A stretch of 39,112 nucleotides of DNA, from positions 1 through 39,112 of the forward strand of contig CALVRF010000001.1 of the NCBI GenBank assembly GCA_944358495.1, given 5' to 3'. Source of the stretch: an uncultured Bacilli bacterium. Its GTDB lineage: Bacteria; Bacillota_I; Bacilli_A; RF39; UBA660. The notes beneath the pieces were generated by a model that ran no database searches, had not been told where the DNA came from, and saw only the letters and a list, made by a program, of their open reading frames with translations. Positions 20,918 through 38,878 of the stretch are shown piece after piece (the first letter of the stretch is position 1; each line of letters starts with the position of its first letter). Made by a program: the position numbers and the translations under genes.

Positions 20918-20932
20918 TGAGTGGTCTTTAAA
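20906..20932 (+). terminator. rho-independent terminator overlapping the holin-like stop codon
   Basis: AAGACCAC / GTGGTCTT 8-bp stem with a 7-nt loop. Confidence 0.6.
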
Positions 20933-21035
20933 ATTGCCTAGTGATTTAAGGAAAATGATGATTGATTCTTCTAATCGCGGGGTTAGAGTTAAGCATTTTT
21001 CATTTTGCCCTAGTAAGTTTAAAGAGGGCCGAATT

Positions 21036-21200: not shown

Positions 21201-21243
21201 TTTTATAAAAATAACAATACGGAAATAATGTATTGTTATTTTA

Positions 21244-22227: not shown

Positions 22228-22386
22228 AGATTTTCCTTCTTTCTAAAGTTTTGTATGGAGCTTATTATATATCAAACCAATATTTTGTCAAGGATATGAA
22301 AGGGATATTATGTAGAATAAAGCTGTCGCAAAAGTGACATATTTAGGGAAAAAATTATATATAATAATATGGGAAAGGATGAGTGG

Positions 22387-23766
22387 ATGAACAAGAGAAA
22401 TATAAAATTTATTCTGTTGATCGTTTTGATTACTTTATTTTTAATTGGTATGCTTATTTTTTATAGTTCTAAAACAGAAGAGCAAGGACAAAATGTAAAT
22501 AAAATTACAACAACCGTAATGAGTGTAGGGAACAATGCATTAACAGTTCAAGATAATAATCATGTTATTTATACATTTGCTATTGATGGTGGAGATATTG
22601 ACGTTGGCGATATTATAGAACTAGAATATGTTGGCGAGCTGAATAAAAATGTGGATTTACAAGATATTCAAGTTATTAATTATAGCTCAGTTAATGTAAC
22701 TGAAGATGAAGATGGTATTCCTGATGATTGGCAAGATAATGGAATATTTAGTGACTTCTATATTCAAGCTAATGAAAAATTAAAAGAAATGGCTTTGGAG
22801 GAAAAAATTTCCCAAATATTGTTGGTTAGATATCCGGATAGCAATGGTATGATTATTTTACAGGAAAATCAATTTGGTGGTTACGTGTTTTTTGAAAGAG
22901 ATTTTCAAAATAAATCATCAAAACAAGTAAAAAGTATGATGAATAGTTTACAAAATGTTGCTAAAATTCCGATATTAACGGCTGTCGATGAGGAAGGGGG
23001 AAAAGTGGTTAGAGTTAGTAGTAATCCTAAATTAATGAGTGAGCCATTTAAGTCATCTAAGGAATTATATTTATCTGGTGGTTTTGAAGCCATAAAAAAA
23101 GATACTGTTGAAAAGAGTGGTATATTATATAATTTAGGATTAAATGTTAATTTGGCGCCGGTTGTTGACGTGGCAACTGATTCTAGTGCTTATATGTACG
23201 GGAGAACTTTAGGTGAGGATACTGCGACTACTGCAACTTATGCTAAAACGGTAATTGGAGCTAGTAAAGGAACAAGTGTATCTTATACTTTGAAACATTT
23301 CCCAGGTTATGGCAATAACAAAGATACTCATGAAGGTGAGGTAACTGATGAACGTTCATATGATGAAATAGTTAAAAATGATTTGCCACCATTTGAAGCT
23401 GGTATTGATGCTGGAGCAGAAGCTGTTTTAGTTAGTCATAATATAGTTAATAGCATTGACTCTGAGAATCCAGCTTCATTATCTCCGAGTGTTCATAATC
23501 TACTTAGAAATGAATTAGGATTTACGGGGATTATTATTACTGATGATTTGGCGATGGGTGCGGTTTCTAATGTTGAAGCTGCAACGGTAAAAGCGGTATT
23601 GGCTGGTAATGATTTAATTATTACTACTGATTATGCTAAAAGTATAGATTCCATTAAGACGGCCATTCAAAATAAAACAATTGATGCAAGACTAGTTGAT
23701 AAACTAGCCTTTAGAGTAATTGCTTGGAAGTATTATAAAGGTTTAATGGTTGATAATCAAAAATAA
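22387..23766 (+). CDS. membrane-anchored glycoside hydrolase family 3 (NagZ-like beta-N-acetylhexosaminidase)
   Basis: KHFPGYG and GIIITDDLAMGA motifs of the GH3 N-terminal domain. N-terminal TM helix. ATG at 22387 is preceded by GGAAAGGATGAG. Confidence 0.85.
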   Translation: MNKRNIKFILLIVLITLFLIGMLIFYSSKTEEQGQNVNKITTTVMSVGNNALTVQDNNHVIYTFAIDGGDIDVGDIIELEYVGELNKNVDLQDIQVINYSSVNVTEDEDGIPDDWQDNGIFSDFYIQANEKLKEMALEEKISQILLVRYPDSNGMIILQENQFGGYVFFERDFQNKSSKQVKSMMNSLQNVAKIPILTAVDEEGGKVVRVSSNPKLMSEPFKSSKELYLSGGFEAIKKDTVEKSGILYNLGLNVNLAPVVDVATDSSAYMYGRTLGEDTATTATYAKTVIGASKGTSVSYTLKHFPGYGNNKDTHEGEVTDERSYDEIVKNDLPPFEAGIDAGAEAVLVSHNIVNSIDSENPASLSPSVHNLLRNELGFTGIIITDDLAMGAVSNVEAATVKAVLAGNDLIITTDYAKSIDSIKTAIQNKTIDARLVDKLAFRVIAWKYYKGLMVDNQK

Positions 23767-23860
23767 AGGGAAAAATCTAGGACACTTGATGTTTTTGAAT
23801 TTGTCTACTTTTTGTGTACATGTTCATATTGCAAAAGTCATTAGATTTTTTTTTGAAAAA

Positions 23861-24075
23861 AGTGATATAAATGTGATATTGTAAAATAAAAACCCTTATA
23901 AAATAAGGGCTAAACTACTAAATTGGTGGAGAATAAGGATTTTATTTATCGATATTAAATAATTTTAAAAATATAGTTTTCCTTTTAATTTCAACCTTTT
24001 TGGTTTATTTATATTTAAAAAGGTTTAAAGTAAATTTATAAAAATTAAGAAAAAAATGATATAAAAATGATATTG
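23861..24075. repeat. att-type repeat copy A (tRNA-Ala 3' fragment at 23924..23938 plus conserved arms)
   Basis: TGGTGGAGAATAAGG is identical to the 3' end of the tRNA-Ala at 38802. Left arm: two GTGATAT boxes plus a CCCTTA/TAAGGG hairpin. The right arm of about 135 nt ends in ATGATATAAAAATGATATT. Confidence 0.85.
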
Positions 24076-24090
24076 ATTTATATAACACAT

Positions 24091-24119
24091 TTGACAATAT
24101 TACTAAATGTTGATATTAT
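24091..24119 (+). promoter_or_regulatory. near-consensus sigma-A promoter of the precursor/rSAM operon
   Basis: TTGACA (24091-24096), 17-nt spacer, extended -10 TGaTATTAT (24111-24119). RBS AAAGGAGGA lies 6 nt before the ATG at 24141. Confidence 0.7.
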
Positions 24120-24140
24120 AGCCATAAAGGAGGAACTTTA

Positions 24141-24524
24141 ATGACAAAACAAGCTATTCAAGATATTTATAAGGAATATTTATCACAGTCATCTAATGCA
24201 TGTTTAGAAGAAATTAGTGCTCATGAAAATGGACACGACAATAGTGGTGGCCACCCTGACTATCATAATGATTCACATGATAATACACCAGGATTGTATA
24301 GAATAATACCACAAAATGTTAATAGTGACTACGAAAAAGGTAGTAGAACATTAGAACTATTAAAATTATATCAATCACAATCATCTATTGAGCTTTCAGA
24401 TCTAATGGGAGTTCACGAAAATGGACATGATAATAGTGGAGGCCATCCTGACTATCACAATGATTCACATGATAATACACCAGGAGTATGTCAGATGGTA
24501 TTAAAGAAACGTGCAAAACATTAA
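24141..24524 (+). CDS. candidate RiPP precursor with two tandem cassettes, each ending in the core HENGHDNSGGHPDYHNDSHDNTPG
   Basis: Strong promoter and RBS. A 24-aa module repeats exactly at aa 28-51 and 92-115, each preceded by Y-x-SQSS-x-x-L. The 3' end overlaps the radical SAM gene. Confidence 0.7.
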   Translation: MTKQAIQDIYKEYLSQSSNACLEEISAHENGHDNSGGHPDYHNDSHDNTPGLYRIIPQNVNSDYEKGSRTLELLKLYQSQSSIELSDLMGVHENGHDNSGGHPDYHNDSHDNTPGVCQMVLKKRAKH

Positions 24525-25620
24525 TACATTAATTAAACCGACGCATAGATGTAATATGCGTTGCAAATACTGTTTCCATGAAAAATATGGCTACTCTAAT
24601 GATTTATTAGATATAAATAAATTAGAAAAATATATTTCATTATTATGTTCAGAATATGATTTTATTAATATTATTTGGCATGGTGGTGAGCCATTGCTTG
24701 CCCCATTATCTTTTTATGAAGAAATTTATGATTTTTGTGACCATTTTAATAAAGAATTTCTATTTACTATTCAAACTAATGGTACATTAATTAATCAAGA
24801 AGTTGTAGATTTTTTCAGAAAAAGAAATACAAATTTTGGACTTTCATTTGATGGATTAAATAATGAATATACAAGGGGTAACACATCAAAAATTTTAGAT
24901 AGTATAGGATTATTACAAGAAAATGGTTTTAGGCCAGGAGCTGTTTTAGTTGTTAATAAAACTAACGTTTCTAATTTGATTGATGAATATAATTTTTTCA
25001 ATTCTATGGGTGTAGGATTAAAATTAAATCCAATGTTTATCGATGGAGAAGCTAAAATGCACGAAGGTGATTTAGGCTTAAATCCCGATGAGTACATAGA
25101 AAATTTTGTTGATTTTTTTAAATACTGGACTTTAGATAATAATGGTAAAATCAATGTAGCTACTTGTAATGAATTAGTTAATTTAATTTTAAACGAACAT
25201 TCAGGGGTATGTACTTTTAATTCATGTTTAGGAAAATGGTTATGTTTTGATTCCGATGCGAATATTTATCCGTGTGATCGATTATGTACTCCAGAGTATT
25301 CTTTAGGAAGTGTTGATTCATTATCTAGTATAAATCAAATATTTGAAAGTGATGTATTTTATGATTTATTAAAATCAAGTGTCGAAAGAAGAACAAAATG
25401 CATAGAAACATGTAAGTATTATAAAAACTGTTATGCAGGTTGTAATGCCAACGCAATCCTAAATAAAAATGATGGGTATGAAAATGGTGTTTCATGCTAT
25501 ATTCATAAAGGTATTTTAGAAAGAATAAAAAGTTATGTTTTAGAGAGTACCGAACAAACAGAACATTTAAATCCTCAATATGTAAAAACTCTAGAGCGTG
25601 CTAAAAATAGAAGAAGGTAA
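24511..25620 (+). CDS. radical SAM enzyme with a C-terminal SPASM-type Cys-rich domain (anSME-like peptide maturase)
   Basis: LIKPTHRCNMRCKYCFHE (CX3CX2C at residues 14-21), GGEPLL, and C-terminal Cys clusters CTFNSC...LCFDSDANIYPCDRLC...CIETCKYYKNCYAGC. The GTG start overlaps the precursor by 14 nt. Confidence 0.85.
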   Translation: MQNINTLIKPTHRCNMRCKYCFHEKYGYSNDLLDINKLEKYISLLCSEYDFINIIWHGGEPLLAPLSFYEEIYDFCDHFNKEFLFTIQTNGTLINQEVVDFFRKRNTNFGLSFDGLNNEYTRGNTSKILDSIGLLQENGFRPGAVLVVNKTNVSNLIDEYNFFNSMGVGLKLNPMFIDGEAKMHEGDLGLNPDEYIENFVDFFKYWTLDNNGKINVATCNELVNLILNEHSGVCTFNSCLGKWLCFDSDANIYPCDRLCTPEYSLGSVDSLSSINQIFESDVFYDLLKSSVERRTKCIETCKYYKNCYAGCNANAILNKNDGYENGVSCYIHKGILERIKSYVLESTEQTEHLNPQYVKTLERAKNRRR

Positions 25621-25622
25621 AT

Positions 25623-26198
25623 ATGAAAGAAAAAATAATTCCTGTATATCACGGGAGTATACATCAAGGTTTAAAAATAATTAAAAGAAATAAAAGTACT
25701 CATGGTAAGTCTTGGGTATATGCAACTTTATCTAAAGCAATTTCCACAATTTTTATAAGCAATAAAGGTAGCGATTTATATTATTATTTAAGTGGTGATG
25801 GAACAGAAAATAATCCAGTACTTTTGGTGGAAAGAAAAGAAGGTATGTTTAAAGATATTTTTAACGTTTCAGGTTCACTTTATACGTTAAGTGGCAAAAA
25901 CTTTATTTCAGGGGAAACTGGTTGGTCCGCAGAAGTGATTAGTGAATCCGATGAAAATGTAATCCATGAAGAACATATAGATAACGTTTTTGAAAAACTT
26001 AAAGAATTAAATGATATGGGAGAATTAAAACTTTATTTATACCCAAATAGACCACCTTTTCTTCCGAAAGATAATAGTGATTTAATTCCAAAAGTTATAA
26101 GATGGAGAAAAAGAGGAATAAATATCGAAACATTTTTTACATTATATCCGGAATTAAAAGAACAGTATTTAAAGCAATTAAATGAAAATGAGGAATAA
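25623..26198 (+). CDS. hypothetical protein, translationally coupled to the rSAM gene
   Basis: The ATG is 2 nt after the rSAM stop. N-terminal VYHGS...HGKSWVYAT. No family recognised. Confidence 0.6.
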   Translation: MKEKIIPVYHGSIHQGLKIIKRNKSTHGKSWVYATLSKAISTIFISNKGSDLYYYLSGDGTENNPVLLVERKEGMFKDIFNVSGSLYTLSGKNFISGETGWSAEVISESDENVIHEEHIDNVFEKLKELNDMGELKLYLYPNRPPFLPKDNSDLIPKVIRWRKRGINIETFFTLYPELKEQYLKQLNENEE

Positions 26199-26321
26199 AC
26201 TCATTTTTTTTAAAAATAATATTTATAATATAACTAATTATATTATACTTACGATATATTATTATATAAATGGTAATTAACAATAATGCCGTGTATTTTG
26301 TTATTATGGAGGAAGTAAAAA

Positions 26322-26471
26322 ATGAAGCTTAAATATAAAAATGATATATATCAAGTTAATATACAAGATTATCTTCTTATAAAAAAAGAAATAATTGAAT
26401 TATCAGAAAACTTATTATTTATTTGTGCATTATTAAGAAGACCTTGGAGATGGGATTATGATAGAGATTAA
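26322..26471 (+). CDS. possible small ORF (49 aa) ending RRPWRWDYDRD
   Basis: Not in the ORF track (too short). ATG at 26322 lies 8 nt after GGAGGAAG. Confidence 0.25.
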   Translation: MKLKYKNDIYQVNIQDYLLIKKEIIELSENLLFICALLRRPWRWDYDRD

Positions 26472-26610
26472 AAAATTAGAAGTATATTGTTAAAATATGC
26501 AAATCAGAATGATTTGAATGATCTAAAGCAATGGTTTTAAAGCATTAAATTTTTAACATAGAATAACTTCCACCATATTTTTTATATAAATTATCTTATA
26601 CTTTAAAAGT

Positions 26611-26829
26611 AAACAATGATATAATCAATGATATTGCAAAATAAAAAACCTTATAAAATAAGGGTTAAACTACTAAATTGGTGGAGAATAAGGGTTTTAT
26701 TTATTGATATTAAATAATTTTAAAAATATGTTTTTCCTTTTAATTTCAACCATTTTAGTTTATTTAAGTTTAAAAAAATTTACAGTGAATTTATAAAAAT
26801 TAAGGAAAAAATGATATAAAAATGATATT
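26611..26829. repeat. att-type repeat copy B (tRNA-Ala 3' fragment at 26679..26694)
   Basis: TGGTGGAGAATAAGGG is identical to the tRNA-Ala 3' end. The arms are colinear with copies A and C. Confidence 0.85.
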
Positions 26830-26860
26830 ACAAAACAGTAGTAAAAATATAAAAAAATCA

Positions 26861-27079
26861 AAAACAATGATATAACAATGATATTGAAAAATAAAAACCC
26901 TCATAAAATAAGGGCTAAACTATCAAATTGGTGGAGAATAAGAGTTTTCTTTATAAGATTTAATAAAAATTAAAAAGTTTGTTTTTCCTTTATTTTTAAG
27001 CATTTTCGTTTACTTTTGTTTAAAAAGATTTAATGTGAGTTTTTAAAAATTAAGGAAAAGATGATATAAAAATGATATA
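26861..27079. repeat. att-type repeat copy C (tRNA-Ala 3' fragment at 26929..26942); left junction of the IME
   Basis: TGGTGGAGAATAAG plus arms colinear with copies A and B. Core-to-core spacing from copy B is 250 bp. Confidence 0.85.
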
Positions 27080-27097
27080 TGATTAATACCTTTTTAA

Positions 27098-27433
27098 TTA
27101 TCTATTTTTATAAGCCTCTATAAATTCATTATCATCATAATTGTGAACATCTATTTCTATTGGTAATATATTGAAATATTTTTCTAGCTTCTCATAGACT
27201 AAAATTTTAACTTTTTCTTTATTTTCAGTTGATACTTGATAATTAGATAGATCAATAGCTAACATTTTATCAATAGTAGATACAGCAACAGCTCCTCTAA
27301 ATTTTATAAAGAAAGCAATATCAGAAGCTAAAACATAAGATAATTTGTCATTATTCTGATATAAAGCATATTCTTCTAACTTATCTTTATTATATATAGC
27401 CTTTTTATTATTGTTAAATGATAAAAATGTCAT
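27098..27433 (-). CDS. hypothetical protein (about 111 aa)
   Basis: ATG at 27433 sits 1 nt after the upstream stop (TAA-A-ATG) with GAGG upstream. The ORF-track start at 27472 would overlap by 38 nt. Confidence 0.45.
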   Translation of the reverse strand: MTFLSFNNNKKAIYNKDKLEEYALYQNNDKLSYVLASDIAFFIKFRGAVAVSTIDKMLAIDLSNYQVSTENKEKVKILVYEKLEKYFNILPIEIDVHNYDDNEFIEAYKNR

Positions 27434-27434
27434 T

Positions 27435-27713
27435 TTATTTTGCCTCAGTAATTGCGAATAGTACTCTTTCAAAAGAGTTAGAAGTGATTTCAGTAGTGTA
27501 ATAACTATTTTTATAAGGCGTTAACTTCCAATAAAAATTATTGTAGCTATAAATAATATCAATATAGAAGAAATGATTATTATATTTTACTCTAATAAGT
27601 TCGTTCTGATAAATACTTATATCATATATTTCTTTGTCTTTATATTTAAGAAATGCGGGTAATATATATTGAGTTAAAACTTCTTTTTTTTTTTGATTTA
27701 TTTTGCTTTGCAT
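27435..27713 (-). CDS. hypothetical protein (92 aa)
   Basis: Intact ORF, first gene of a two-gene coupled pair. No motif recognised. Confidence 0.45.
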   Translation of the reverse strand: MQSKINQKKKEVLTQYILPAFLKYKDKEIYDISIYQNELIRVKYNNHFFYIDIIYSYNNFYWKLTPYKNSYYTTEITSNSFERVLFAITEAK

Positions 27714-27889
27714 ATATTCCTACTTTCCATATTAAATTATTTTATGCTTGTTTTAAGCAAGTATTTTTTAGTATAAAAAGATAGAAAATTCAAATATTAA
27801 TACTATAAGTGTGATATTTATCATTAAAAAATAATGTGTATCGGAATATCGCCTAATATGCAATTATGAAATAACTTTGTAAAATTAAA

Positions 27890-28186
27890 TTGAAGAAGGT
27901 GATATTTATATTTAAGGACAATATAAACGCTGTATCTAAAGAAATTGTTAAAGTAGATTTACCAAATGGGTATTGCTTATTTAAACTTGGTAAATTGTTA
28001 AATGATAAAAATATAAGTATTAATCAATTTATGAGAGATACAGATACCGACTTCAAAACAATTAAAAAACACGCAAATGGTTTAGCACAGCAAATAGATA
28101 CATTACTAATTGATAAATGGTGTAAGTATTTAGATGTTGATGATAATGAAATTTATGAGTATATAAGAAATAAGGTTGATAATTAA
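27890..28186 (+). CDS. small HTH DNA-binding protein (Cro/C1-like), paralog 1
   Basis: GYCLFKLGKLLNDKNISINQFMRDTDT...KWCKYLDV...IYEYI aligns with the paralog at 28404. The start codon is uncertain (TTG 27890 or GTG 27899). Confidence 0.55.
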   Translation: MKKVIFIFKDNINAVSKEIVKVDLPNGYCLFKLGKLLNDKNISINQFMRDTDTDFKTIKKHANGLAQQIDTLLIDKWCKYLDVDDNEIYEYIRNKVDN

Positions 28187-28239
28187 AATCTTATTTTTTT
28201 ATTCCCCACCTTCCTAAAACGAAAAACATTAAATATTTA

Positions 28240-28284
28240 TATATACCATTTATTTAGGTATAATGACAGCTTTAATGGTATATA
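28240..28284. promoter_or_regulatory. 11-bp perfect inverted repeat bracketing a TATAAT box
   Basis: TATATACCATT (28240-28250) and AATGGTATATA (28274-28284) flank TATAAT (28259-28264). A second imperfect IR lies at 28347-28360 / 28372-28384 (GTACTTACGGAATA / TATTCGTAAGTAC). Confidence 0.5.
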
Positions 28285-28403
28285 ACAAAGATATAAAAGG
28301 TAATTTTCTAATTTCTATTTAATGTTTTTCATATTAAGTATACCCCGTACTTACGGAATAGTCAACAACGGTATTCGTAAGTACAATTATATTAGGTGGT
28401 ATA

Positions 28404-28646
28404 ATGCAGGAAAAGTATGTAAAAATAGAGGTTGAACATGGGTATTGGTTGTTTAAACTTGGTAGTTTATTAGCTGAACGTGGTATAAGTAAAAATAAAA
28501 TAATGCGTGATACTAATACAAAACACGATACTTTACAAGGGTATGTAAATGGAACTCTTAAAAGAGTAGATATAGATGTATTAGATAGATTTTGTAATTA
28601 TTTAAATTGTGATATGGTCAATATTATAGAATATATAAAAAAATAG
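28404..28646 (+). CDS. small HTH DNA-binding protein (Cro/C1-like), paralog 2
   Basis: GYWLFKLGSLLAERGISKNKIMRDTNT...RFCNYLNC...IIEYI. RBS AGGTGG upstream. Confidence 0.65.
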   Translation: MQEKYVKIEVEHGYWLFKLGSLLAERGISKNKIMRDTNTKHDTLQGYVNGTLKRVDIDVLDRFCNYLNCDMVNIIEYIKK

Positions 28647-28677
28647 CTTTTGGCATTATTGCCAAAGGCTATTTTTA
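28643..28677. terminator. bidirectional terminator between the convergent HTH and Nudix genes
   Basis: ATAGCTTTTGGCA / TGCCAAAGGCTAT 13-bp stem (one G:U pair), flanked by A- and T-runs. Confidence 0.7.
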
Positions 28678-28690
28678 TTAACAGACTCCT

Positions 28691-29095
28691 TTATTTCATA
28701 TCTATTTTGATTTCTTCAATTATATGACCAATGTTTCCTTCGCCAGCATATTTGTTCATGTCGAAGAAATTATCATTAATTGGTACCCATTCGAGTTTAT
28801 TTACTTCTTCTACGAGTGTAACATTTTTATTTAATATGCCATAATACGCTTCTAATTCTTTTCCCCACTTAACATATGACAAATTCATAAAGTGGATTAG
28901 TTCAACATCATCTTTTTTTATGTTAGTTTCTTCATAAAGTTCGCGGTAGGCCTCATTTAAGCCATCATTTTCTTTTTCAATTTTCCCACCAACAAGATTA
29001 TACATTCCCATATAAGGCTCTTTAGTTCGTTTACACATTAATGTTTGTGTCATATCTTTGTTAAAAATTACTATTACATTCATTTTTTTCATCAT
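28691..29095 (-). CDS. Nudix hydrolase
   Basis: Nudix box variant GGKIEKENDGLNEAYRELYEETNI (REx2EE present). Confidence 0.8.
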   Translation of the reverse strand: MMKKMNVIVIFNKDMTQTLMCKRTKEPYMGMYNLVGGKIEKENDGLNEAYRELYEETNIKKDDVELIHFMNLSYVKWGKELEAYYGILNKNVTLVEEVNKLEWVPINDNFFDMNKYAGEGNIGHIIEEIKIDMK

Positions 29096-29155
29096 ATCAC
29101 CTCAAGATAATTTTACCATAAATTCAAACTAAAGTATACATTTGGAACAAGAAGT

Positions 29156-31009
29156 TTAGTGTTTCACAAAATCTTCTATTTTTTGTTTAAAATATGATTG
29201 CAAATTTTTGTCCTCACAGTAAATAAAACATCCTTTAATACCTCTGGTTAATAGTACTCTATAAGCATTTTTAATTAGTTGAGTGGCAATTACGTTTGCT
29301 TTTTCCGGTTCTTTTTTCAACAATTTTTTTAGTCCCCTTAAAGATGGATCTGTTGAAGCATGATTGAGAAAGTCGGCCACAACAACTCCATTTTCATATT
29401 TCAAGTCGTTACCAATAATTACTCCAACATAATCAAATTCCAAGCCTTGTACCGAATGTATACAACCAGCTTCATTGACGGAGTCATCAATTGCAAATGT
29501 CTGTGCTTGCCCCAAATTCCAGCTCATTGCATAATCATCAATAACAATATCATGGTAATCAGGGTTGTTAGCCTCTTTTTTATTCCAATTCCAACAATAG
29601 CCTGCAAGAATTCTAGCATTTTCTGTGGTGTTAAGTTCTTTAATTGTATTCATTAATTTAGTAGGGCTTTCTATTACGTTTATATTATAATCAACCATTT
29701 CCCCACTATATTCATTATTGATTTGCAAGAGGTAATCCACAAAATTTAAATAATCATTAGAACCACTACATCTAAATTGTGATTTTAAAGTCATATTCAA
29801 AATATTTGCATTATACATTTCCGCAAAATATTTTATATTTTCTTTTGTGCCAATATCATTAAAATGTACGCGTTGTTGTTCATCAATGAAAAATATAGAT
29901 AATTTAGCGGACCTAATTATTTCTTTTATTTGATTTTCCCCATAATTATTAAAAAGTCCGGATTTTTCAGTTAAGCAATGAGCTTCATCAACAATTAACA
30001 CATCAAAAATATTTTCTTGCACATCAGTATATGACCCTGATGATTTAAATAAATTATCAATACTACTTTTTTTCATACTTTGTTTTAGTTGATATGAATA
30101 AACCACTCTTGGAGCTGTATTTCTAGATACATATTGACACAGCTTTCCTTCGTTAATAAAATATCCCAATAAATTAATTGCAACTACTGATTTTCCTGTC
30201 CCTGGTTTTCCACTAACAATAACCACAGTTTTTTCATACTTTTTTGCAACAGATATAATTCTGTCAAAAACTTCCACTTGATCATCGATTAATTTAAAAT
30301 ATTGATTATCAATGAGTAATGCTTTTATATTGTTTTGTAATTTGGCGGAAGGATTAATCTTGGAATTGTTAATTTCTTGTATTATTAATCCATTATCCCC
30401 AAATTTAATATTGTCTTCCAAAAATTTTTTTAGTAATAATTTATCATTTTTTCCGAATAAACTAACACCTTTAACAAAATCATCAAATTTTTCGTTCAAC
30501 AAATCATCATTAGGTGTTAATTCATAATTGTGTAACAAGACAACAGATTTTAAAATCACTTGATTCTGTTGAATATAGTCGTCAAAATCCTTTAATAACT
30601 CCTGATAAGACCAAACTTGATAAGCGGGATGAACTACTTTTTGGAGTCCGCCATTAATGAAAGTCTCCACCAAATAATTACTATCATCCAGCAAATGAAT
30701 TTCACTCCATTGTTTCAATTCAAAAAGAATAACGACTTTTTGTTTTTGGTCGTTATATCCACTTATAATTAAATCTACTCTTTTTGATGTCATTGGTAGA
30801 TTATATTCTAGAGTAATAGTACTATTCATAGGAATATTACAATCTTTTATTACGTTGGCAATATATCCTAATGATGAATCCCACGAATTAATTTCAGATT
30901 TTCCGACTTTTCTATATAGTTTTTTGCTCATCAAGTCATTTAAAATGGAGGATATTCCATCATCTATATCTTTTAAAAATTTTGAAACACTATTACTATA
31001 TACTATCAT
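29156..31009 (-). CDS. DUF2075-family ATPase: N-terminal PD-(D/E)xK-like module plus SF1 helicase-like P-loop domain
   Basis: N-terminus SW..SL...KRVDLIISG...VVILFELKQW (D...ExK). Walker A SGKPGTGKS, Walker B LIVDEAH, and C-terminal HSVQGLEFDYVGVIIG, typical of UvrD-like C-domains. Confidence 0.8.
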   Translation of the reverse strand: MIVYSNSVSKFLKDIDDGISSILNDLMSKKLYRKVGKSEINSWDSSLGYIANVIKDCNIPMNSTITLEYNLPMTSKRVDLIISGYNDQKQKVVILFELKQWSEIHLLDDSNYLVETFINGGLQKVVHPAYQVWSYQELLKDFDDYIQQNQVILKSVVLLHNYELTPNDDLLNEKFDDFVKGVSLFGKNDKLLLKKFLEDNIKFGDNGLIIQEINNSKINPSAKLQNNIKALLIDNQYFKLIDDQVEVFDRIISVAKKYEKTVVIVSGKPGTGKSVVAINLLGYFINEGKLCQYVSRNTAPRVVYSYQLKQSMKKSSIDNLFKSSGSYTDVQENIFDVLIVDEAHCLTEKSGLFNNYGENQIKEIIRSAKLSIFFIDEQQRVHFNDIGTKENIKYFAEMYNANILNMTLKSQFRCSGSNDYLNFVDYLLQINNEYSGEMVDYNINVIESPTKLMNTIKELNTTENARILAGYCWNWNKKEANNPDYHDIVIDDYAMSWNLGQAQTFAIDDSVNEAGCIHSVQGLEFDYVGVIIGNDLKYENGVVVADFLNHASTDPSLRGLKKLLKKEPEKANVIATQLIKNAYRVLLTRGIKGCFIYCEDKNLQSYFKQKIEDFVKH

Positions 31010-31011
31010 AA

Positions 31012-32382
31012 TTATCTCCTTGTCAAAACTTTTTGCTTGTCGGTACAGCTATATGTTAAATACTCACCGGTTATATAAGAATTATCATAAAATCTCTTTT
31101 CAATCTCTTTGTCAAAGTCAGAATCCCATAAATCGTTTGAATAGCCAAGTATTTTCTGATATGTTCCAATACTTTGTAAATATTTTTTATACATTTCATA
31201 AGAATTAAATGTCATTAAAAAGCGATTTCTACATGCAGAAATTGGAAATAAACCAGCTTCATCAACCATCCTGTCCATATCATCCAAAGTATATCTGCCA
31301 TCCAAATCTTGGGGCATAAATGTCTCTTTGAGATAATCAATGCCTGGTACTGAAAACAAGATTTTACCATTATCGGTAAGTAATTCTCTAGCTTTATTTA
31401 ATGCCAAAACTGGATTGTTTAAATGATGTAAAACATAACTAAATATTATTATATCAAAAGAGTCATTAAATTCCAAATTCATAAAGTCTTTATTTATAAA
31501 GGCTGTTTTATTTTTCCCAGAAAAAATTCTGTTTTGAGCATTTAAAATCATTTCGTCACTTATGTCAATGCCTGTAATCTCACAACCATTAAATGTCTTA
31601 TCTATTTTTCCAATTAATTTTCCAGTTCCACAGCCAATGTCAGCAATTTTCATTCCATCATTAACGCTTGATAATACTTCATTTGTAATAGGGTTTTTTA
31701 TACCGTGATATATTACAAATCTTGATTTATCATCCCATTCATCAGCCACTTTGCCCCCGAACACTTCTTCAACACCAGAAGATAGTGTGCTTTTAGATAA
31801 TTGTTCTATAAAATTATTTAACATATTTATATTGTTTGACATTTGAAATTTTGAGGTTGAGCAAGATTCAAATGCGTCGATACATTCTTCAACCATAGAA
31901 ATAGTGTCTTGGAGATTATCATTAACCACAACATAATCAAAATTTCTTGCCACAATCAAATTATTGACGTCATCTCTAATTCTGCCCGTAGATCTGTTTT
32001 CTCTTCTCAAATTTAAAGTTTCTACTGATGGCGGAAGAAGTAGAATTAAACAAGTGTTCGGATTGGCTTTTTTCATTTCTAGGGCTCTATCAGGAGTTAG
32101 CTGAAAAATAATCGTTGAATCGGAGTTGATGTTATCTATATCTTTTTCAAAACTACCATAATAGTGTCCATCATAACACTTAACATTAAACATTTCGCCT
32201 TTTTTTACATAATCTTCAAATACTTCTTTTTCCATAAAGAAATAATCAAAACCATCAATCTCTCCTTCTCGTGGTTTTCTGGTGGTACAAGTAGTAAACT
32301 TTCTAAATTTAGGGTTTTTTAATAATAGTTCAGTTATTGTACCTTTTCCTGAACCACTTGGGCCACTAAAAACTAAATTCAT
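31012..32382 (-). CDS. fusion protein: guanylate-kinase-like domain plus class I SAM-dependent methyltransferase domain
   Basis: N-terminus GPSGSGKGT P-loop and TTRKPREGEIDGFDYFF (GMP-binding signature). C-terminus IADIGCGTGKL (motif I), GIDISDEM, FDIIIFSYVLHHL. Its stop is 2 nt before the DUF2075 ATG, and that gene's AAGGAG RBS lies inside its 3' end. Confidence 0.8.
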   Translation of the reverse strand: MNLVFSGPSGSGKGTITELLLKNPKFRKFTTCTTRKPREGEIDGFDYFFMEKEVFEDYVKKGEMFNVKCYDGHYYGSFEKDIDNINSDSTIIFQLTPDRALEMKKANPNTCLILLLPPSVETLNLRRENRSTGRIRDDVNNLIVARNFDYVVVNDNLQDTISMVEECIDAFESCSTSKFQMSNNINMLNNFIEQLSKSTLSSGVEEVFGGKVADEWDDKSRFVIYHGIKNPITNEVLSSVNDGMKIADIGCGTGKLIGKIDKTFNGCEITGIDISDEMILNAQNRIFSGKNKTAFINKDFMNLEFNDSFDIIIFSYVLHHLNNPVLALNKARELLTDNGKILFSVPGIDYLKETFMPQDLDGRYTLDDMDRMVDEAGLFPISACRNRFLMTFNSYEMYKKYLQSIGTYQKILGYSNDLWDSDFDKEIEKRFYDNSYITGEYLTYSCTDKQKVLTRR

Positions 32383-32409
32383 CTATCTCACCTCTTCGTT
32401 ATGCTCGCT

Positions 32410-32438
32410 ATAATAACGCAAAATAAATTTTTTGTCAA
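32410..32438 (-). promoter_or_regulatory. near-consensus sigma-A promoter of the Gmk-MTase/DUF2075 operon
   Basis: On the minus strand: TTGACA (32438-32433), 17-nt spacer, TATTAT (32415-32410). RBS GAGGTGA precedes the ATG at 32382. Confidence 0.7.
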
Positions 32439-32583
32439 TATTTTCCATTTTATTATGTACAGAAGACCAAATTGCCTTTTACTCTTTATAAAAAAAGTCT
32501 TTGAACGTAGTTTCAAAGGCTTTTTGATGACACTATGACAGCAATTTATGGGTGGGGTAGTCCCAATTTTTACTGTCATAGTG

Positions 32584-33033
32584 TCATTTTCTTTTGTTTA
32601 TATTATCTTGAATAATTTTTTTAGTGTCATTATATGCTTTATCAATTATGACATAAATAAATATTTCCAATATTACTGTAAATAAATATAAACTAATAAA
32701 TACATATAAGTTATTTAATGAAATATTAAAGTTAGGAAAATCTTGTATAAAAATAATTGCTAAATACACAAGAGTATATAGTACTAATAAAACCGTAGTA
32801 GTATCATTTAATGACCTATTAACAAGTTCTGATTTTCTCTTATCAATATTTAAACCGTTTTTACTCCATTTACCAACACAATATACGTTACCAATTAATG
32901 TAAATGGAATTAAACACCAATATAAGCTAACCCAAAAATCATTTTGATTAATCACAAGTGCTATTACATCAATTAACAAAAATATATTACCTAAAATTTG
33001 TACTATATTAAAATATTTAATTCTTTCTCGCAT
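32584..33033 (-). CDS. small polytopic membrane protein co-transcribed with the XRE repressor
   Basis: Four predicted TM helices. ATG at 33033 is preceded by GAGAGGA. Overlaps the repressor 3' end by 17 nt. Confidence 0.55.
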   Translation of the reverse strand: MRERIKYFNIVQILGNIFLLIDVIALVINQNDFWVSLYWCLIPFTLIGNVYCVGKWSKNGLNIDKRKSELVNRSLNDTTTVLLVLYTLVYLAIIFIQDFPNFNISLNNLYVFISLYLFTVILEIFIYVIIDKAYNDTKKIIQDNINKRK

Positions 33034-33520
33034 TTTCGATCCTCTCTTTCGTTTTAGCACTATGTAATAGTTTAACAATTTCATTAGCTGAATTAATTTG
33101 ATATTCTGTATCTTCTATTGTTTGCATAGTAACTTCTTTTTCTTCTTCCGATATATTTTCATCTTTTAATCTCTTATTTAAACTATCTAATAATGATTGC
33201 CAATTATCTATACTTCCCAAAGTATTAACAAGAGCCTCATCTAATTCTTTTCCTTTTAAAGAAGAATAGTAATGTTTAAGTAATGGGTTTAATGGTGTTA
33301 CTTGAAAACCTAAGCCAGCTGCATACATTAAATCATTATAATTAACATCAATATGTTGGCTTATTTTTCGGAGTGTTTTAGGATTTGGAATTTCACGTTC
33401 TCCACTTTCAATTCGTGCTAGTTCTGTATCACTAATATTAGCCATCCTAGATAGTTCACGTTTTGATAAACCTTTAGCTTCTCTTGCTTTAGCTATCATT
33501 TGACCAACCGTTTCGTGCAT
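33017..33520 (-). CDS. XRE-family (CI-like) transcriptional repressor
   Basis: HTH GLSKRELSRMANISDTELARIESGER. ATG at 33520 is preceded by GAAAGGAGC. The ORF-track start at 33571 runs into the promoter. Confidence 0.8.
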   Translation of the reverse strand: MHETVGQMIAKAREAKGLSKRELSRMANISDTELARIESGEREIPNPKTLRKISQHIDVNYNDLMYAAGLGFQVTPLNPLLKHYYSSLKGKELDEALVNTLGSIDNWQSLLDSLNKRLKDENISEEEKEVTMQTIEDTEYQINSANEIVKLLHSAKTKERIENARKN

Positions 33521-33542
33521 AAAAAAGCTCCTTTCTGCTACC

Positions 33543-33680
33543 AATATAACATATTTTAATGATTTTTTCAACTTTTTTATCGAAAAATAACACTTTTTGC
33601 AACTTTTTGGTTGACAAAAGTGGTTTTATGGTGTGTAGTCAACTTATAAGTTGCACTTTAAATTAAATTGCAACTTAACA
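33543..33680. promoter_or_regulatory. divergent promoter/operator switch region of the IME
   Basis: Leftward TTGAAA-17-TATATT (33571-33566 / 33548-33543). Rightward TTGACA at 33611-33616. Five CAACTT/AAGTTG half-sites, including the perfect palindrome CAACTTATAAGTTG (33640-33653). Confidence 0.6.
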
Positions 33681-33916
33681 AAAGCTCTTTGACAACTGCA
33701 TAGTGTGCTTACGGTCAGACTGGCCCAGGGTTTGCTGGGAACGGGAAGTACACGTTAAACAAAGAAATCATCCTAATTTACATTAGGAGTTGTGGGTTAG
33801 CTAAAACCCTCCTTAGATACATTGCTTAAAAAGTATGTATACATCCTAAAAGGGAGTTGTCGGTAACACTAAAACCGTCATTGCTGAAAATATCATAAAA
33901 CGAAAGGGGGAAATAA

Positions 33917-34147
33917 ATGACAGCAAGTGAAACATTAAAGTTAATTGCAAAACAATGGTGTAATTTAGAAGATTTGAGAAAATTAACAGGTTTAGGAAAA
34001 AACAATGCCTTAAAATTAAAAAGTGAAATTAAAGACAATTTAGAAAGTAAAGGTTATCAGTTACCTAATAAACTATTACCAATGAGTGAAGTAGTAGAGT
34101 ATTTAAAAATCAATGTGAGTTATTTACAAGAGGTGTCAAAAAATTAG
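33917..34147 (+). CDS. small putative DNA-binding protein (excisionase/regulator-like)
   Basis: 76 aa, first rightward gene of the switch, RBS AAAGGGGGA. Function inferred from position only. Confidence 0.4.
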   Translation: MTASETLKLIAKQWCNLEDLRKLTGLGKNNALKLKSEIKDNLESKGYQLPNKLLPMSEVVEYLKINVSYLQEVSKN

Positions 34148-34165
34148 TATGGGAGAAATGATAAT

Positions 34166-35110
34166 ATGAAAACTATATCACAAATGAGAAATGAGCCAAT
34201 AAAAAAAGATTTCATAGTTGATAAACTAATGAAATCTCGGGGAGTGTATTGTCTAGTTGCAAGACCGAAAGTTGGTAAATCATTATTCGCACTTCAACTT
34301 GCCAACTCGGTTGCAAATGGACAAGAGTTTCTTGGTTTGAAAACAATTACATCTCCTGTACTATATATTAGCACAGAAATGAACTCTACACAAATTTTAG
34401 AACGTATAGATAAAATGGGTTTACAGTTTACTGATAAAAATTTCTTTTTAAAGGAGCAAGAAGTAAATGAGAGAAAATTAAATCTTATGGACTTACAATT
34501 AGATTTACAAGAATTTGCTTATGATTATGGTGGAAAACTTGTGATTATTGATATGTTATGTGGAATTAGATTAGATAATGGCTATGATATTAATAGTTAC
34601 CAAGATATTGGTCAGTATGTTATACCAAAATTTAGAGAATTAAGCAATAAATATGGTTTTACAATATTATTAATACACCATTTAAATAAAAGCAATACTT
34701 CTTTAGGTAGTACAGCTATTGATGGCTCGGTTGATGGTATGATTACTTTAAAAAAAGATAATAATATCGTAAATAAAATATTTCTTAATTATGAAAGTAG
34801 AGATTTTGAGGGGCTAGATTTGATTTTAAAAAGGAATGAAAATTTACTATTTGAAATTTCAGAGTTGGAAACCGAAGATTTAAATGTTAATTTAATCATA
34901 TTCCTAAATTATGCAATAAAACAAAGGGACTTTGAATTTACAGTATCAGAAATTACAAGCAAATTAAATTTAAATATAACACCATCACAATTTGGTAAAA
35001 TATTAAATGCTAACATAGACAACTTGCAAAAAGAGGGACTATATATAGAGCAACAAAGGAAAGCAAAGGCTAGGGTATATATCGCACAATATAAAGAGCC
35101 TTTGGAATAA
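34166..35110 (+). CDS. RecA-fold AAA ATPase (RepA/DnaB-C-terminal-like, AAA_25 type)
   Basis: Walker A ARPKVGKS, Walker B LVIIDML, and LLIHHLNKS, typical of RepA-like replicative helicases of plasmids and islands. Confidence 0.7.
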   Translation: MKTISQMRNEPIKKDFIVDKLMKSRGVYCLVARPKVGKSLFALQLANSVANGQEFLGLKTITSPVLYISTEMNSTQILERIDKMGLQFTDKNFFLKEQEVNERKLNLMDLQLDLQEFAYDYGGKLVIIDMLCGIRLDNGYDINSYQDIGQYVIPKFRELSNKYGFTILLIHHLNKSNTSLGSTAIDGSVDGMITLKKDNNIVNKIFLNYESRDFEGLDLILKRNENLLFEISELETEDLNVNLIIFLNYAIKQRDFEFTVSEITSKLNLNITPSQFGKILNANIDNLQKEGLYIEQQRKAKARVYIAQYKEPLE

Positions 35111-35131
35111 TACTTTATATATTACCTGATA

Positions 35132-35365
35132 TCAATATTCACTGAATAAGTGAATATTGAAAATAAACGTGGCACGTTTTGTTTGCGATAGCAAATGAAA
35201 GTGGCGATAGTTTATTTCTTCAATAATAATTGCTGTGGAATTATTATTGAATTAGTCTTATAGGAATAAACATAGCTTATTCCTATAAGACATAAGGGGG
35301 TTTTTAGGGAACTCCCTAAACTCACAAATGGGCTATGCCCTAGTGAGATAGGTCATAAATGACCT
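35132..35365. other. array of eight consecutive hairpins; candidate oriT (and/or replication origin)
   Basis: Perfect IRs: 35132-35160 (11 bp), 35165-35179 (6 bp), 35182-35195 (5 bp), 35219-35251 (13 bp), 35255-35291 (15 bp), 35303-35320 (8 bp), 35330-35340 (4 bp), 35350-35365 (7 bp). The array is immediately upstream of the MobV gene. Confidence 0.55.
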
Positions 35366-35389
35366 CTAAATAACTGGGGGTAATAAATA

Positions 35390-36814
35390 TTGTATGATGG
35401 AAAGCAAGTTGTGAGGGTAGAAACTAAATATAAACAGAAAGATTTGTATAATATTGGAATAGAAATGAAACAAAGAAAAGGTACTGGAAATTATGACAAA
35501 GAACGTACACCGTTTAATGTGGAGTATGTATCTATGTCTGAAAGAAATCTATATCAAGAAGTGAAACAAACCTTAAAAAGAAGAAATATTGAATATTTAA
35601 ATAAGCCTAATACTAACTTATTAAATGGTATTACGTTTACAAGTGGTAATGAATTTTTTGAGGCATTAGGTATGAAGTTTATTGATAGTGGTAGAACATA
35701 TAAAACTGGCGATAAAAAAGGACAAGCTGTTAAAACACCATATATAAAATCAAAAGAAGATATACCACAAGCTGTTAGTTATTATTTTGATAGCTGTATG
35801 GACTTTTTGAAAGAATATGTAGGCGAAGAAAATATATTGTTAGCTCAAATACATTATGATGAAGATACTCCTCATCTGCAAGCCTATTATATACCAGTAG
35901 TAAATAAGGTAAAGCGAAAATGTTATGTAAAAGATAAAGAGGGAAATGTAGTAAAAGAAGAAGTTAAAAATAAGCAAGGTAAAACTTCACTTGTTCCAAA
36001 GCTGTTAAGAGATGATAAAGGTAAAATTGTTTATGAAGAAGTTAAAGGAAAATTTTTAAACAATGATCAATTCTGGAAAAGTAAAGGTGGTAAAAATTCT
36101 TTTGCGAGATTACAAGACAATTTTAATAAATTTATTACTGAACGTGGTTTTAAATTAGATAGAGGTAATATTGGTAATGATGTAGAACATAAAACAAAAT
36201 TAGAACATCAAATAGAGGAAAATAAGGCAGAGTTAGAGGAATTACAGCTAGAAAAAGAAAGAACTAAACAAATACTTGAAGATACTAAAAATGGCTTGTT
36301 AGAGGCACAAAAATCAGCAAATAAAGAGGTTTTAAACCCTAGAAAAGGTATTGTTGGTTATAATACTAATGATGTAGTAGAAATAGTAGAATATTCCAAG
36401 AATTTGGAAAAAATCAATATATTACAGCAAAGCGAATTAAAAAATAAAGATACACTTATAACTAAATTGTCTAATGAAAATGAAAATTTTAAACAAAATA
36501 AAGAATTAATCAAAAGAAATAAAATTATTGAAGAACAAAAAGACACCATTAAAGAGCAAAAAAAGGAAATTACTAGGCTAAAAAATATAGTCAATGTTTT
36601 AGAAAATAACATTGAAAATTTAAAACAAAAATTTGAAAGAGAAATTGATAAATGGAAAAATCTATTTTCTAAAATGTGTAAAGCTATTGATAAAGTATTA
36701 AAACGAGAGCCTAAAAAATATATTGAAGATTATGAAGATTTAGCTGATAGCATTAATTATGATTACTATGATAAAGGAAAAGACAAAAATGATGATTTTG
36801 AAATGAGATTATAA
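35390..36814 (+). CDS. MobV-family (Mob/Pre) relaxase
   Basis: HYDEDTPHLQAYYIPV matches the HxDExxPH motif of pMV158 MobM-type relaxases (final His replaced by Gln). Long coiled-coil C-terminus. TTG start 9 nt after GGGGG. Confidence 0.8.
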   Translation: MYDGKQVVRVETKYKQKDLYNIGIEMKQRKGTGNYDKERTPFNVEYVSMSERNLYQEVKQTLKRRNIEYLNKPNTNLLNGITFTSGNEFFEALGMKFIDSGRTYKTGDKKGQAVKTPYIKSKEDIPQAVSYYFDSCMDFLKEYVGEENILLAQIHYDEDTPHLQAYYIPVVNKVKRKCYVKDKEGNVVKEEVKNKQGKTSLVPKLLRDDKGKIVYEEVKGKFLNNDQFWKSKGGKNSFARLQDNFNKFITERGFKLDRGNIGNDVEHKTKLEHQIEENKAELEELQLEKERTKQILEDTKNGLLEAQKSANKEVLNPRKGIVGYNTNDVVEIVEYSKNLEKINILQQSELKNKDTLITKLSNENENFKQNKELIKRNKIIEEQKDTIKEQKKEITRLKNIVNVLENNIENLKQKFEREIDKWKNLFSKMCKAIDKVLKREPKKYIEDYEDLADSINYDYYDKGKDKNDDFEMRL

Positions 36815-36858
36815 GATATTGCAAGTTTATTAATTAAGTATTATAATTTGTTTAGGAA

Positions 36859-37503
36859 GTGATATGCTTGGTAGAGATAAAACAATGGGTAAAAGATATT
36901 GTAATTTATTTTGAATTTTTGAATAACATTAATTTAAAATTATTTAAATTATGCTCTTTGGATTGTTGGAATGATATTACATCAATAGAAAAATATTATT
37001 TAGATATTTCACAAGATTTATTTAGATTATTACCTTGTTCTGCTAATACTAAATTAAAAAAAATTAATTTGATAGAAAGCGATGGCATATTTTCGATTAA
37101 TGATGGCATAGAAGAATTAAAAGGAGAAATTAAAAAATTTGTTTTAGAAAATAATGATATTTTATATACTATTAAATATATTAGAAATAAAACTGAACAT
37201 ATGCCTCATAAACTTAAAGCAGAAGGATTTTATAGTGGAAGTACGGGAAGTGATATACGATTTTCCTATGAAAATGAAAGTTTAAACATAAATTTTAATG
37301 ATTTGAAAAAGTTAGTTATTAAGTTAAATGAAATATTTATAAAAATGCAAAATGATTTGTCAAAATATCAAAATCAATTATCAGAGGAATACAAGACCTA
37401 TCCTTGTTGGGATTACTTAAAAAGTATGAATTTTGAAATATATAATAAATTACTTTTAAGTGAAAATTTATATGACATTTCATTTGTTATCAACAAATAT
37501 TAA
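36859..37503 (+). CDS. hypothetical cargo protein with an RNxxxH (HEPN-like) motif
   Basis: KYIRNKTEHMPH contains R-N-x-x-x-H. The start is uncertain (GTG 36859, or TTG 36868 nine nt after AGGAAG). Confidence 0.45.
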   Translation: MICLVEIKQWVKDIVIYFEFLNNINLKLFKLCSLDCWNDITSIEKYYLDISQDLFRLLPCSANTKLKKINLIESDGIFSINDGIEELKGEIKKFVLENNDILYTIKYIRNKTEHMPHKLKAEGFYSGSTGSDIRFSYENESLNINFNDLKKLVIKLNEIFIKMQNDLSKYQNQLSEEYKTYPCWDYLKSMNFEIYNKLLLSENLYDISFVINKY

Positions 37504-37589
37504 TATATTTAAATTAAAGATTATTATAGTAGAAAGTAAGTAAAACTTTTTATATTAATAATCTTTTTTGTTTGGGAGGTGAGAGCAAT

Positions 37590-38687
37590 TTGTCGTTATA
37601 CCAAGACAAAAAGACCAAGAAATGGTGTTATAGACTATCTAAATATGTAAATGGGAAACAAGTTCAAAAGCATTCTAAATGGTATGATTTAAAAAAAGAG
37701 GCAAAAGAGGCAGAAAAAGAATATTTAAAATCTATTAATGAAAATAATTCTTCTGATGAAGAAATAACATTTAAAGATGTGTGGGAAAGTTATATTGATT
37801 TTAAGAAAGATAAATTAAAAATAACAAGTTATAATGCAATATTAAATAAAGGTATACATTATGAAAGTTTATATAATATAAAAATGATAAATTTTGATAT
37901 TAATGTTTTTAATAACTGGAAGAGGTATATAAATAAACAAGACTTTTCCACCACACATAAAAATAATTTATATAAATGTTTGAGGTCAATTTTAAGATAT
38001 AGTGAAAAGTATCTTGATATTAAAGTAAATACATTGCTTAATAAAATGACTAATTTTAATAACCCAAACGAATTAAAAAAAGAAATGAATTTTTTTACTT
38101 ATGATGAATTTAAAAGTTTTATAAGTGTTGAAGAAGATTTAACTTATAAAACTTTTTTTGAGGTCTTATATTATTGTGGTTTAAGACAAGGCGAAATACA
38201 AGCCTTAACTTGGAAAGATATTACATTTGTAAATGATAATGAAGTATTAGTAAAAATAAATAAAACTTTAACATCAAAAATTAAGGGCAAAAAATATGTG
38301 ATTTTACCACCAAAGACCAAAAGCAGTTATAGAACATTACCAGTAAAAAATAAACAATTAATTAGTGATTTAAAGTTATTAAAAGAAAGATGTCAAAAAT
38401 TATATGGTTTTTCAGAAGAGTGGTTTGTATTTGGAAATGTGTATCCTTTAGCTGATACTACTATACAAACTAGAAAGAACAAAAATTGTAAATTAGCCGG
38501 TGTAAAAAGAATAAGAATACACGATTTTAGGCATAGCTGTGCTAGTTTATTAATAAATAAAGGAGCAAGTGTTGCTTTAGTTTCAAAATATTTAGGTCAT
38601 AGTGATATAGCTACAACATTAAATATATATTCACATATGTTTAAAAGTGAATTACAAGATATAGCCGAAGAATTAAAAGATTTATAA
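37590..38687 (+). CDS. int: tyrosine-type site-specific integrase
   Basis: GLRQGE (Arg I), HDFRHSCAS (HxxR), GHSDIATTLNIYSH (catalytic Tyr). TTG at 37590 lies 7 nt after GGGAGGTGA and gives the typical MSLYQDKKTKKW N-terminus. Confidence 0.88.
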   Translation: MSLYQDKKTKKWCYRLSKYVNGKQVQKHSKWYDLKKEAKEAEKEYLKSINENNSSDEEITFKDVWESYIDFKKDKLKITSYNAILNKGIHYESLYNIKMINFDINVFNNWKRYINKQDFSTTHKNNLYKCLRSILRYSEKYLDIKVNTLLNKMTNFNNPNELKKEMNFFTYDEFKSFISVEEDLTYKTFFEVLYYCGLRQGEIQALTWKDITFVNDNEVLVKINKTLTSKIKGKKYVILPPKTKSSYRTLPVKNKQLISDLKLLKERCQKLYGFSEEWFVFGNVYPLADTTIQTRKNKNCKLAGVKRIRIHDFRHSCASLLINKGASVALVSKYLGHSDIATTLNIYSHMFKSELQDIAEELKDL

Positions 38688-38734: not shown

Positions 38735-38817
38735 AACAATGATATAACAATGATATTGTAAAATAAAAACCCTTGAAAAAATAAGGGCTTAACTATCATT
38801 TTGGTGGAGAATAAGGG
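38735..38817. repeat. att-type repeat copy D (left arm plus core); right junction of the IME, continuous with the intact tRNA-Ala
   Basis: CAATGATATAACAATGATATTG, the CCCTTG/TAAGGG hairpin and TGGTGGAGAATAAGGG are colinear with the left halves of copies A-C. Confidence 0.85.
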
Positions 38818-38878
38818 ATTCGAACCCTTGACCCCTTGCGTGCAAAGCAAGTGCTCTAGCCAGCTGAGCTAATTCCCC
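38802..38878 (-). tRNA. tRNA-Ala: tRNA-Ala (anticodon TGC); integration target
   Basis: The reverse complement reads GGGGAATTAGCTCAGCTGG...CTTGCTTTGCACGCAAG...GGTTCGAATCCCTTATTCTCCACCA. It has the G3:U70 Ala identity pair, anticodon loop TTTGCAC and an encoded CCA. Confidence 0.93.

Follow-up and report, generated by a model that had tools for sequence, protein, structure and literature searches.

A probable composite island of related mobile elements beside the tRNA-Ala gene of an uncultured gut Bacilli bacterium

Why should the end of one tRNA gene occur four times in a single stretch of bacterial DNA? The question is raised by positions 1 to 39,112 of contig CALVRF010000001.1 (assembly GCA_944358495.1, an uncultured Bacilli bacterium of the lineage UBA660), a 39,112-nt stretch referred to here as the window, in which the 3' end of a tRNA-Ala gene recurs at three places upstream of the intact gene. 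We consider it very probable that the region 23843-38878 is a composite island, which consists of a relic attachment (att) arm, a 2.75-kb cis-mobilizable element (CIME), a 250-bp microCIME, an 11.9-kb integrative and mobilizable element (IME) and the tRNA-Ala gene, and in which the IME is the active element.

The repeated block is a 14-nt core, TGGTGGAGAATAAG, with exact matches at 23924, 26679, 26929 and 38802; 0.01 matches would be expected by chance, and none of 100 shuffles gave four or more. ARAGORN and Rfam both placed an intact tRNA-Ala(UGC) on the minus strand at 38802..38878, so the core is the reverse complement of the last 14 nt of the tRNA, CCA included, and copy D (38802-38815) is the 3' end of the gene itself. 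The other copies of this crossover block lie on the + strand at 23924..23937 (A), 26679..26692 (B) and 26929..26942 (C). A first-pass annotation had described the recurrence as a repeat of 14-16 nt; the 14 nt are invariant, but positions 15-16 vary (GA in copy A, GG in B, AG in C and GG in D). Its further claims of colinear arms around each core, of a left arm and core next to the real tRNA, and of core start-to-start distances of 2755, 250 and 11873 bp were all borne out. Repeat finding and alignment delimited about 200 nt per copy, with a 201-nt family at 23874-24074, 26629-26829 (92%) and 26879-27079 (82%), and the left arm and core were found again at 38723-38820, where a 61-nt left-arm-plus-core family takes in 38760-38820. 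Right arms are 77-89% identical among copies and left arms 82-88%. An inverted-repeat model of the core site was judged by eye to lack convincing symmetry and is not claimed, and a reading of the arms as a known structured RNA was ruled out, as the Rfam matches in 23000-39112 are to the tRNA only.

Each core is accompanied by paired short boxes in direct repeat. Six pairs match RTGATAYNNNNRTGATAY, against 0.5 expected, every one on the + strand, and a seventh, in the left arm of copy B, has a 12-nt period instead of an 11-nt one. Counted from the first base of the core, the box starts fall at -62/-51 and +132/+143 in every copy, and the consensus of the boxes is (A/G)TGATAT. The ATGATAT boxes that the first-pass annotation had noticed at both arm ends therefore do sit at fixed offsets, but the leftmost left arm carries GTGATAT instead. 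The arms also contain a hairpin, which had been described as a mimic of the tRNA terminator. This description held, in that in three of the four copies the hairpin is called as an intrinsic terminator of the minus (tRNA) strand (23911-23891, 26916-26896 and 38790-38767).

The same units were followed in other genomes by use of metagenome contigs recovered by exact-protein look-ups, which are labelled in the style of L001 (L003, L022 and so on). In these contigs the units between cores are discrete modules: a unit may be there or missing, or stand in another order, and the changes fall exactly at the core. At all junction types, positions 15-16 and everything rightward follow the right-hand partner, while the bases directly left of TGGTGG follow the left-hand partner, which confines strand exchange to the invariant 14-nt block. 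Comparison with related genomes also yielded the empty bacterial attachment site (attB), in the TilS-like/AsnRS context only: the order in two related species (L022 and L023) is TilS-like gene, tRNA-Ala, single core, native terminator and then the genes for a 214-amino acid (aa) protein and AsnRS, with no boxes, and the native terminator of L023 matches the far flank of the occupied site. Far junctions in other hosts likewise consist of native terminator, core and the P' arm of the IME, with a host side that is free of boxes.

The unit between the cores at 26929 and 38802 has the same bounds in other hosts, leaves the tRNA intact and carries a tyrosine integrase gene (37572..38687, + strand) beside the tRNA-proximal core. 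The catalytic domain of the integrase is clear (PF00589, E=7.7e-27), residues R205, H317, R320, H343 and Y353 are invariant in an alignment with five relatives, and residues 17-59 match the arm-binding domain Arm-DNA-bind_4 (PF14657, 25.8 bits against a cut-off of 22.3). A relaxase of the Mob_Pre (MobV) type was also found (E=2.3e-12), and Pfam scans of the larger open reading frames (ORFs) of the unit (at least about 75 aa) detected no VirB4 or coupling-protein domain. By gene content, namely its own integrase and relaxase, the 11.9-kb unit is a predicted IME. Over all 11,887 bp it is 99.92-99.95% identical in three chromosomal contexts that hold three tRNA-Ala variants, with ABC/Tam41 genes (var1, as in the window), a TilS-like gene (var2) or EngB/Der genes (var3) nearby. 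These contexts may be paralogous loci of one genome or may belong to separate genomes; the S66/EngB context, at least, represents a different host. The LemA and M48 regions of the var3 host match those of the window at only about 63-72% in translated comparison, which together with the near-identity of the IME (about 99.9%) indicates that it moved recently between diverged hosts. The proposal of site-specific integration at the tRNA is thus strengthened by an integrase with an arm-binding domain in the expected place, and that of tandem accretion by related elements at one tRNA by the modular units, the empty sites and the same integrase.

What, then, do the boxes do? In lambda-type systems such as those of lambda Int and Tn916 Int, the attachment site of the element (attP) has its core between arm-type integrase sites on the P and P' arms. 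About 2,000 relatives of the integrase were recovered at E <= 1e-30 (viral contigs were rejected as a source, since they gave four distant matches only, at 21-30% identity), and three of them were examined. The first (P0002, 67% integrase identity) is an 8.8-kb element of the same backbone at a tRNA-Ala with the same core, and has GTGATAT GTGATAT at -62/-51 and GTGATAT GTGATAC at +133/+144. The second (P0007, 61%), of the same backbone, is at a tRNA-Pro, with AAGATGTA-type boxes at -72/-61 and +133/+144. The third (P0011, 55%) is a prophage at a tRNA-Ser, with TGGTATATAA twice at -72/-61 in its one readable arm, followed by a hairpin near-identical to that of the window. Across integrases that are 67-55% identical, the box geometry is therefore kept and the box sequence altered, on both arms together where both ends are readable. 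Fixed geometry with a box sequence that shifts with the integrase is the pattern expected of arm-type integrase sites, and supports the first-pass suggestion that the boxes are candidates for such sites; we infer that they are bound by the N-terminal domain of the integrase. The element encodes several helix-turn-helix (HTH) proteins, and directionality factors bind repeated arm sites in other systems, as lambda Xis does, so the boxes could instead be bound by another protein, whether an excisionase, an HTH regulator of the element or a host bending protein. We regard this as improbable, given that each arm carries its boxes as a direct repeat with a spacing of one helical turn, that the boxes are kept in the gene-less 250-bp unit and shift in sequence with integrase divergence both in elements of similar backbone and in a prophage, and that the integrase has a recognised arm-binding domain. 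The near-unchanged hairpin in the tRNA-Ser-targeting relative shows that the hairpin belongs to the element, and it is a predicted element-borne replacement for the displaced terminator of the tRNA.

Under the composite-island reading, a lambda-type tyrosine integrase would act through its catalytic domain on the 14-bp core and through its N-terminal arm domain on the paired ATGATAT boxes, of which two lie some 55 bp from the core in the P arm and two some 135 bp from it in the P' arm, on the opposite side. Integration would amount to an exchange of arms between the attP of an element and any site that bears the core. A newcomer that settled beside a resident element would leave an internal junction resembling a complete attP, which could account for copies B and C. 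The 2.75-kb CIME and the 250-bp microCIME would be neighbours without an integrase that have retained both arms, and the P arm of the IME would give the tRNA its new terminator. We infer that the units still recombine today and that transfer of the IME uses a helper conjugation system; the near-identity of the IME in hosts that have diverged at LemA and M48 lends the latter indirect support.

Copy A does not fit a count of three elements. Its left arm (P0, 23843..23923, + strand; boxes at 23862-23868 and 23873-23879; terminator hairpin at 23891-23911 on the minus strand) shares 84% identity with 38723-38780, a match that takes in the integrase terminator's T-run, as in copy D. Over its box region, P0 does not differ from the P arm of the element in L125/L126, whose integrase is the 67%-identical one. 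GTGATAT boxes of that family, the T-run of an integrase terminator, and native flanks that are free of boxes together suggest that P0 is the relic of a fourth element whose body is gone. Four elements rather than three are thus predicted to have contributed to the array, the leftmost being an older, lost one. Upstream of 23843 nothing convincing was found for its left boundary, either among degenerate cores (up to 3 mismatches) or among relaxed box pairs. The stretch 15390-23850 encodes a BceAB-like ABC/FtsX pair, a response regulator, a histidine kinase, a holin-like protein, a 327-aa protein and a GH3 hydrolase. Relatives L101/L108 lack this stretch in their syntenic LemA-M48-PedC-like region, and it may be what is left of the lost element's cargo. 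Copies B and C lie just 250 bp apart and look superficially like a tandem duplication, which raises the thought that a single att region gave rise to the repeats, through duplication in place or unequal homologous recombination, without separate elements. We give this very little credence: the arms have diverged to the extent given above, each unit turns up independently in other genomes, where the breakpoints coincide exactly with the core, and the boxes of copy A belong to a different element family.

A similar relic was seen elsewhere in the family. In IMEs of the same backbone at tRNA-Pro (L128-L130, about 1075-1400), a relic integrase terminator and P arm stand at the distal junction, with boxes AAGTGGTAA / AAGTGGCAA, which suggests that accretion with decay recurs across the element family.

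The unit between cores A and B (23924-26692) is flanked by att sites and has intact boxes on both arms. Its P' arm (23938..24078, + strand) carries ATGATAT boxes at 24056-24062 and 24067-24073, and its P arm (26613..26678, + strand) carries boxes at 26616-26622 and 26628-26634, which are the pair with the 12-nt period, together with the hairpin. The body (24079..26612, + strand) has three genes only, for a repeat-containing peptide (24141-24524), a radical SAM/SPASM maturase (24511-25620) and a 191-aa protein (25623-26198), behind a strong promoter-like site, TTGACA-17-TATTAT (24091-24119). Domain searches detected no integrase or relaxase domain in the unit, and by its att flanks and the loss of integrase and transfer genes it is a predicted CIME. 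The cassette 24091-26198 resembles those for ribosomally synthesized and post-translationally modified peptides. Within the 127-aa peptide are two 118-nt repeats (24176-24293 and 24368-24485), each coding HENGHDNSGGHPDYHNDSHDNTPG; the maturase is best matched by DynA, the dynobactin maturase (176 bits, which falls below the cut-off), and the 191-aa protein has no assigned function. An IS21-family insertion sequence (IS) interrupts the unit in L003/L112/L113 (about 12810-15020 in L003), with a 7-nt duplication, CAGAATG.

What follows the 2.75-kb unit differs within the window's own species, in which there are two alleles: in one the 250-bp unit and the IME come next, and in the other an unrelated element begins directly behind the core. 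The occurrence of this different element after core B in some strains indicates that at least two unrelated element families use the core. It is seen in L003 (15210-18104), L112 and L115; its arm begins AGAAAGCAGTTATTT, and it has a 220-aa gene and a 513-aa GTP_cyclohydro2-like gene.

The unit between cores B and C is free of genes, flanked by att sites and 250 bp long from core to core. It (26693..26928, + strand) comprises a P' arm with boxes at 26811-26817 and 26822-26828, a spacer of about 36 nt, and a P arm with boxes at 26867-26873 and 26878-26884 and the hairpin at 26896-26916. The order flank, 250-bp unit, IME, tRNA is found on the single contigs L145 and L146, and the order flank, IME, 250-bp unit, tRNA on the single contigs L147 and L150. 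Overall, the unit is tRNA-proximal in L016, L134, L140, L141, L147 and L150 and distal in the window, L145 and L146. A junction built from pieces of the window (integrase end, P_D, core, P'_B, spacer, P_C, core) matches L134 at 765/766 positions. At least four chromosomal contexts hold both the 250-bp unit and the IME, with the same sequences each time, and the two probably arrived together. Just beyond the distal junction of this composite in another host lies a frameshifted second integrase (Arm-DNA-bind_4 and Phage_int_SAM_3; L142 112-1190; L110).

This co-travel bears on the claim of successive integrations. That related elements integrated at one tRNA still stands, but one event per unit is not required, since the array need not record a separate integration for a unit that travels with the IME in several hosts. 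Strictly sequential accretion, in which each unit entered separately at the tRNA-proximal site with one integration per core and the newest nearest the tRNA, is the usual scenario in the literature (PMC5704250, PMC7563491), and the order in the window fits it, the most decayed units being farthest from the tRNA. Nevertheless, it appears unlikely here, because the shared occurrences point to movement en bloc, and because the tRNA-proximal microCIME of L147/L150 would require that an element entered at a distal site or that a composite circle re-integrated by way of its internal attP. Two events could produce the proximal order from the distal one: such re-integration, or insertion of the IME into the distal att site of a 250-bp unit already in place. 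It is possible, though we put this forward tentatively and with some doubt, that the 250-bp unit is no passive scar but a hitchhiking att-only element, the counterpart in site-specific recombination of a miniature inverted-repeat transposable element, which moves from host to host with the IME and provides the composite circle with a second attP fit for use; integration at one or the other would then yield the two orders.

Several points weigh against the composite island with an active IME. No empty site for the window's own tRNA-Ala locus was recovered among the contigs examined, and the attP junction of the IME alone (P_D-core-P'_C) was in none of them. In the contigs read from a look-up of its 191-aa protein, the 2.75-kb unit always stands beside the GH3 gene, and its mobility is unsupported. 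No excisionase was identified; a 76-aa ORF (33917-34147) is a candidate, with no sequence match in Pfam, NCBIfam or PDB, weak PHROG matches without function and a low-confidence AlphaFold model (predicted local distance difference test score 62). Finally, binding of the boxes by the N-terminal domain of the integrase is proposed from sequence patterns.

The P' arm of the IME (26943..27078, + strand; boxes 27061-27067 and 27072-27078) adjoins native box-free flanks in L101/L105/L108/L147/L150, and its P arm (38737..38801, + strand) carries boxes at 38739-38745 and 38750-38756 and the replacement tRNA terminator at 38767-38790 on the minus strand. According to domain searches, the body (27079..37571) holds both cargo and a maintenance/transfer module. 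The latter includes an HTH regulator (33017-33571, minus strand), the 76-aa ORF, an AAA_25 protein (34166-35110), the Mob_Pre relaxase (35390-36814) and a 214-aa ORF; in some samples (L134/L147/L151) an IS110-family element lies between the AAA_25 and relaxase genes. The cargo has PADLOC candidate-defence matches. One part of it (28691-32382, minus strand) encodes a fusion of guanylate kinase and S-adenosylmethionine methyltransferase (mad2-like), an SLFN-g3/DUF2075 helicase (PADLOC PDC-S41) and a NUDIX protein (PDC-S07), and looks like a candidate defence module. The other part consists of two paralogous HTH_26 genes (27890-28186 and 28404-28646), which adjoin this module. Outside the island, the window contains 12 tRNA genes in three + strand clusters (10150-11884), parts of which are differently arranged in L023, as is an MvaI/BcnI-like gene (11985-12746).

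How does the array compare with known systems? Tandem accretion at the 3' end of a target gene has been described for streptococcal integrative and conjugative elements (ICEs) or IMEs together with CIMEs, as with ICESt1/ICESt3 and the tRNA-Lys locus of S. agalactiae (cited in PMC5704250). The scenario there has three steps, namely integration, decay to a CIME, and entry of a new element into the att site beside the target gene, and transfer of whole composites has also been described (PMC5704250). The window is alike in having an integrase-bearing element beside the target gene, att-flanked units without integrase beyond it, and chimeric internal att sites, and its composite would likewise move as a whole. 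It differs in its host (an uncultured low-GC gut Bacilli bacterium), its tRNA-Ala target and its integrase family. MicroCIMEs of Streptococcus salivarius are gene-less and 130-220 bp long; the structure microCIME-CIME-ICE-target gene is among those listed, and the most decayed elements are always the most distant (PMC7563491). The 250-bp unit is similarly gene-less, consists of att arms only and stands in tandem with a CIME and an IME, but at 250 bp it is just above that size range, it has the same IME as companion in several hosts, and in some hosts it separates the IME from the target gene, so that the most decayed unit is not always the most distant. The likeness to lambda attP lies in the arm-domain integrase, the directly repeated boxes on both arms across about 210 bp and the crossover within a short block of identity, whereas two boxes per arm, all in the same orientation, and no identified excisionase or host-factor sites set it apart. 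Unlike both the streptococcal and the lambda systems, the array is known from sequence alone.

Tandem accretion, CIMEs and microCIMEs are thus already published, and the array fits that framework with no new mechanism and one departure, the position of the 250-bp unit next to the tRNA in some hosts. Because the conceptual framework exists, the value of the locus is descriptive. It provides a clean and fully delimited case of island growth by accretion, in an uncultured lineage of gut Bacilli whose mobile elements have barely been described. It also defines a family of IMEs that target tRNA genes and whose attP layout can be read, with a pair of arm boxes at fixed distances on each side of a 14-bp core, and the ATGATAT and GTGATAT boxes may offer a test system for arm-site specificity. 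One such IME has spread almost unchanged among diverged hosts while carrying candidate defence genes, and the gene-less att-only unit that travels with it, able to sit on either side of the IME, is an added case.

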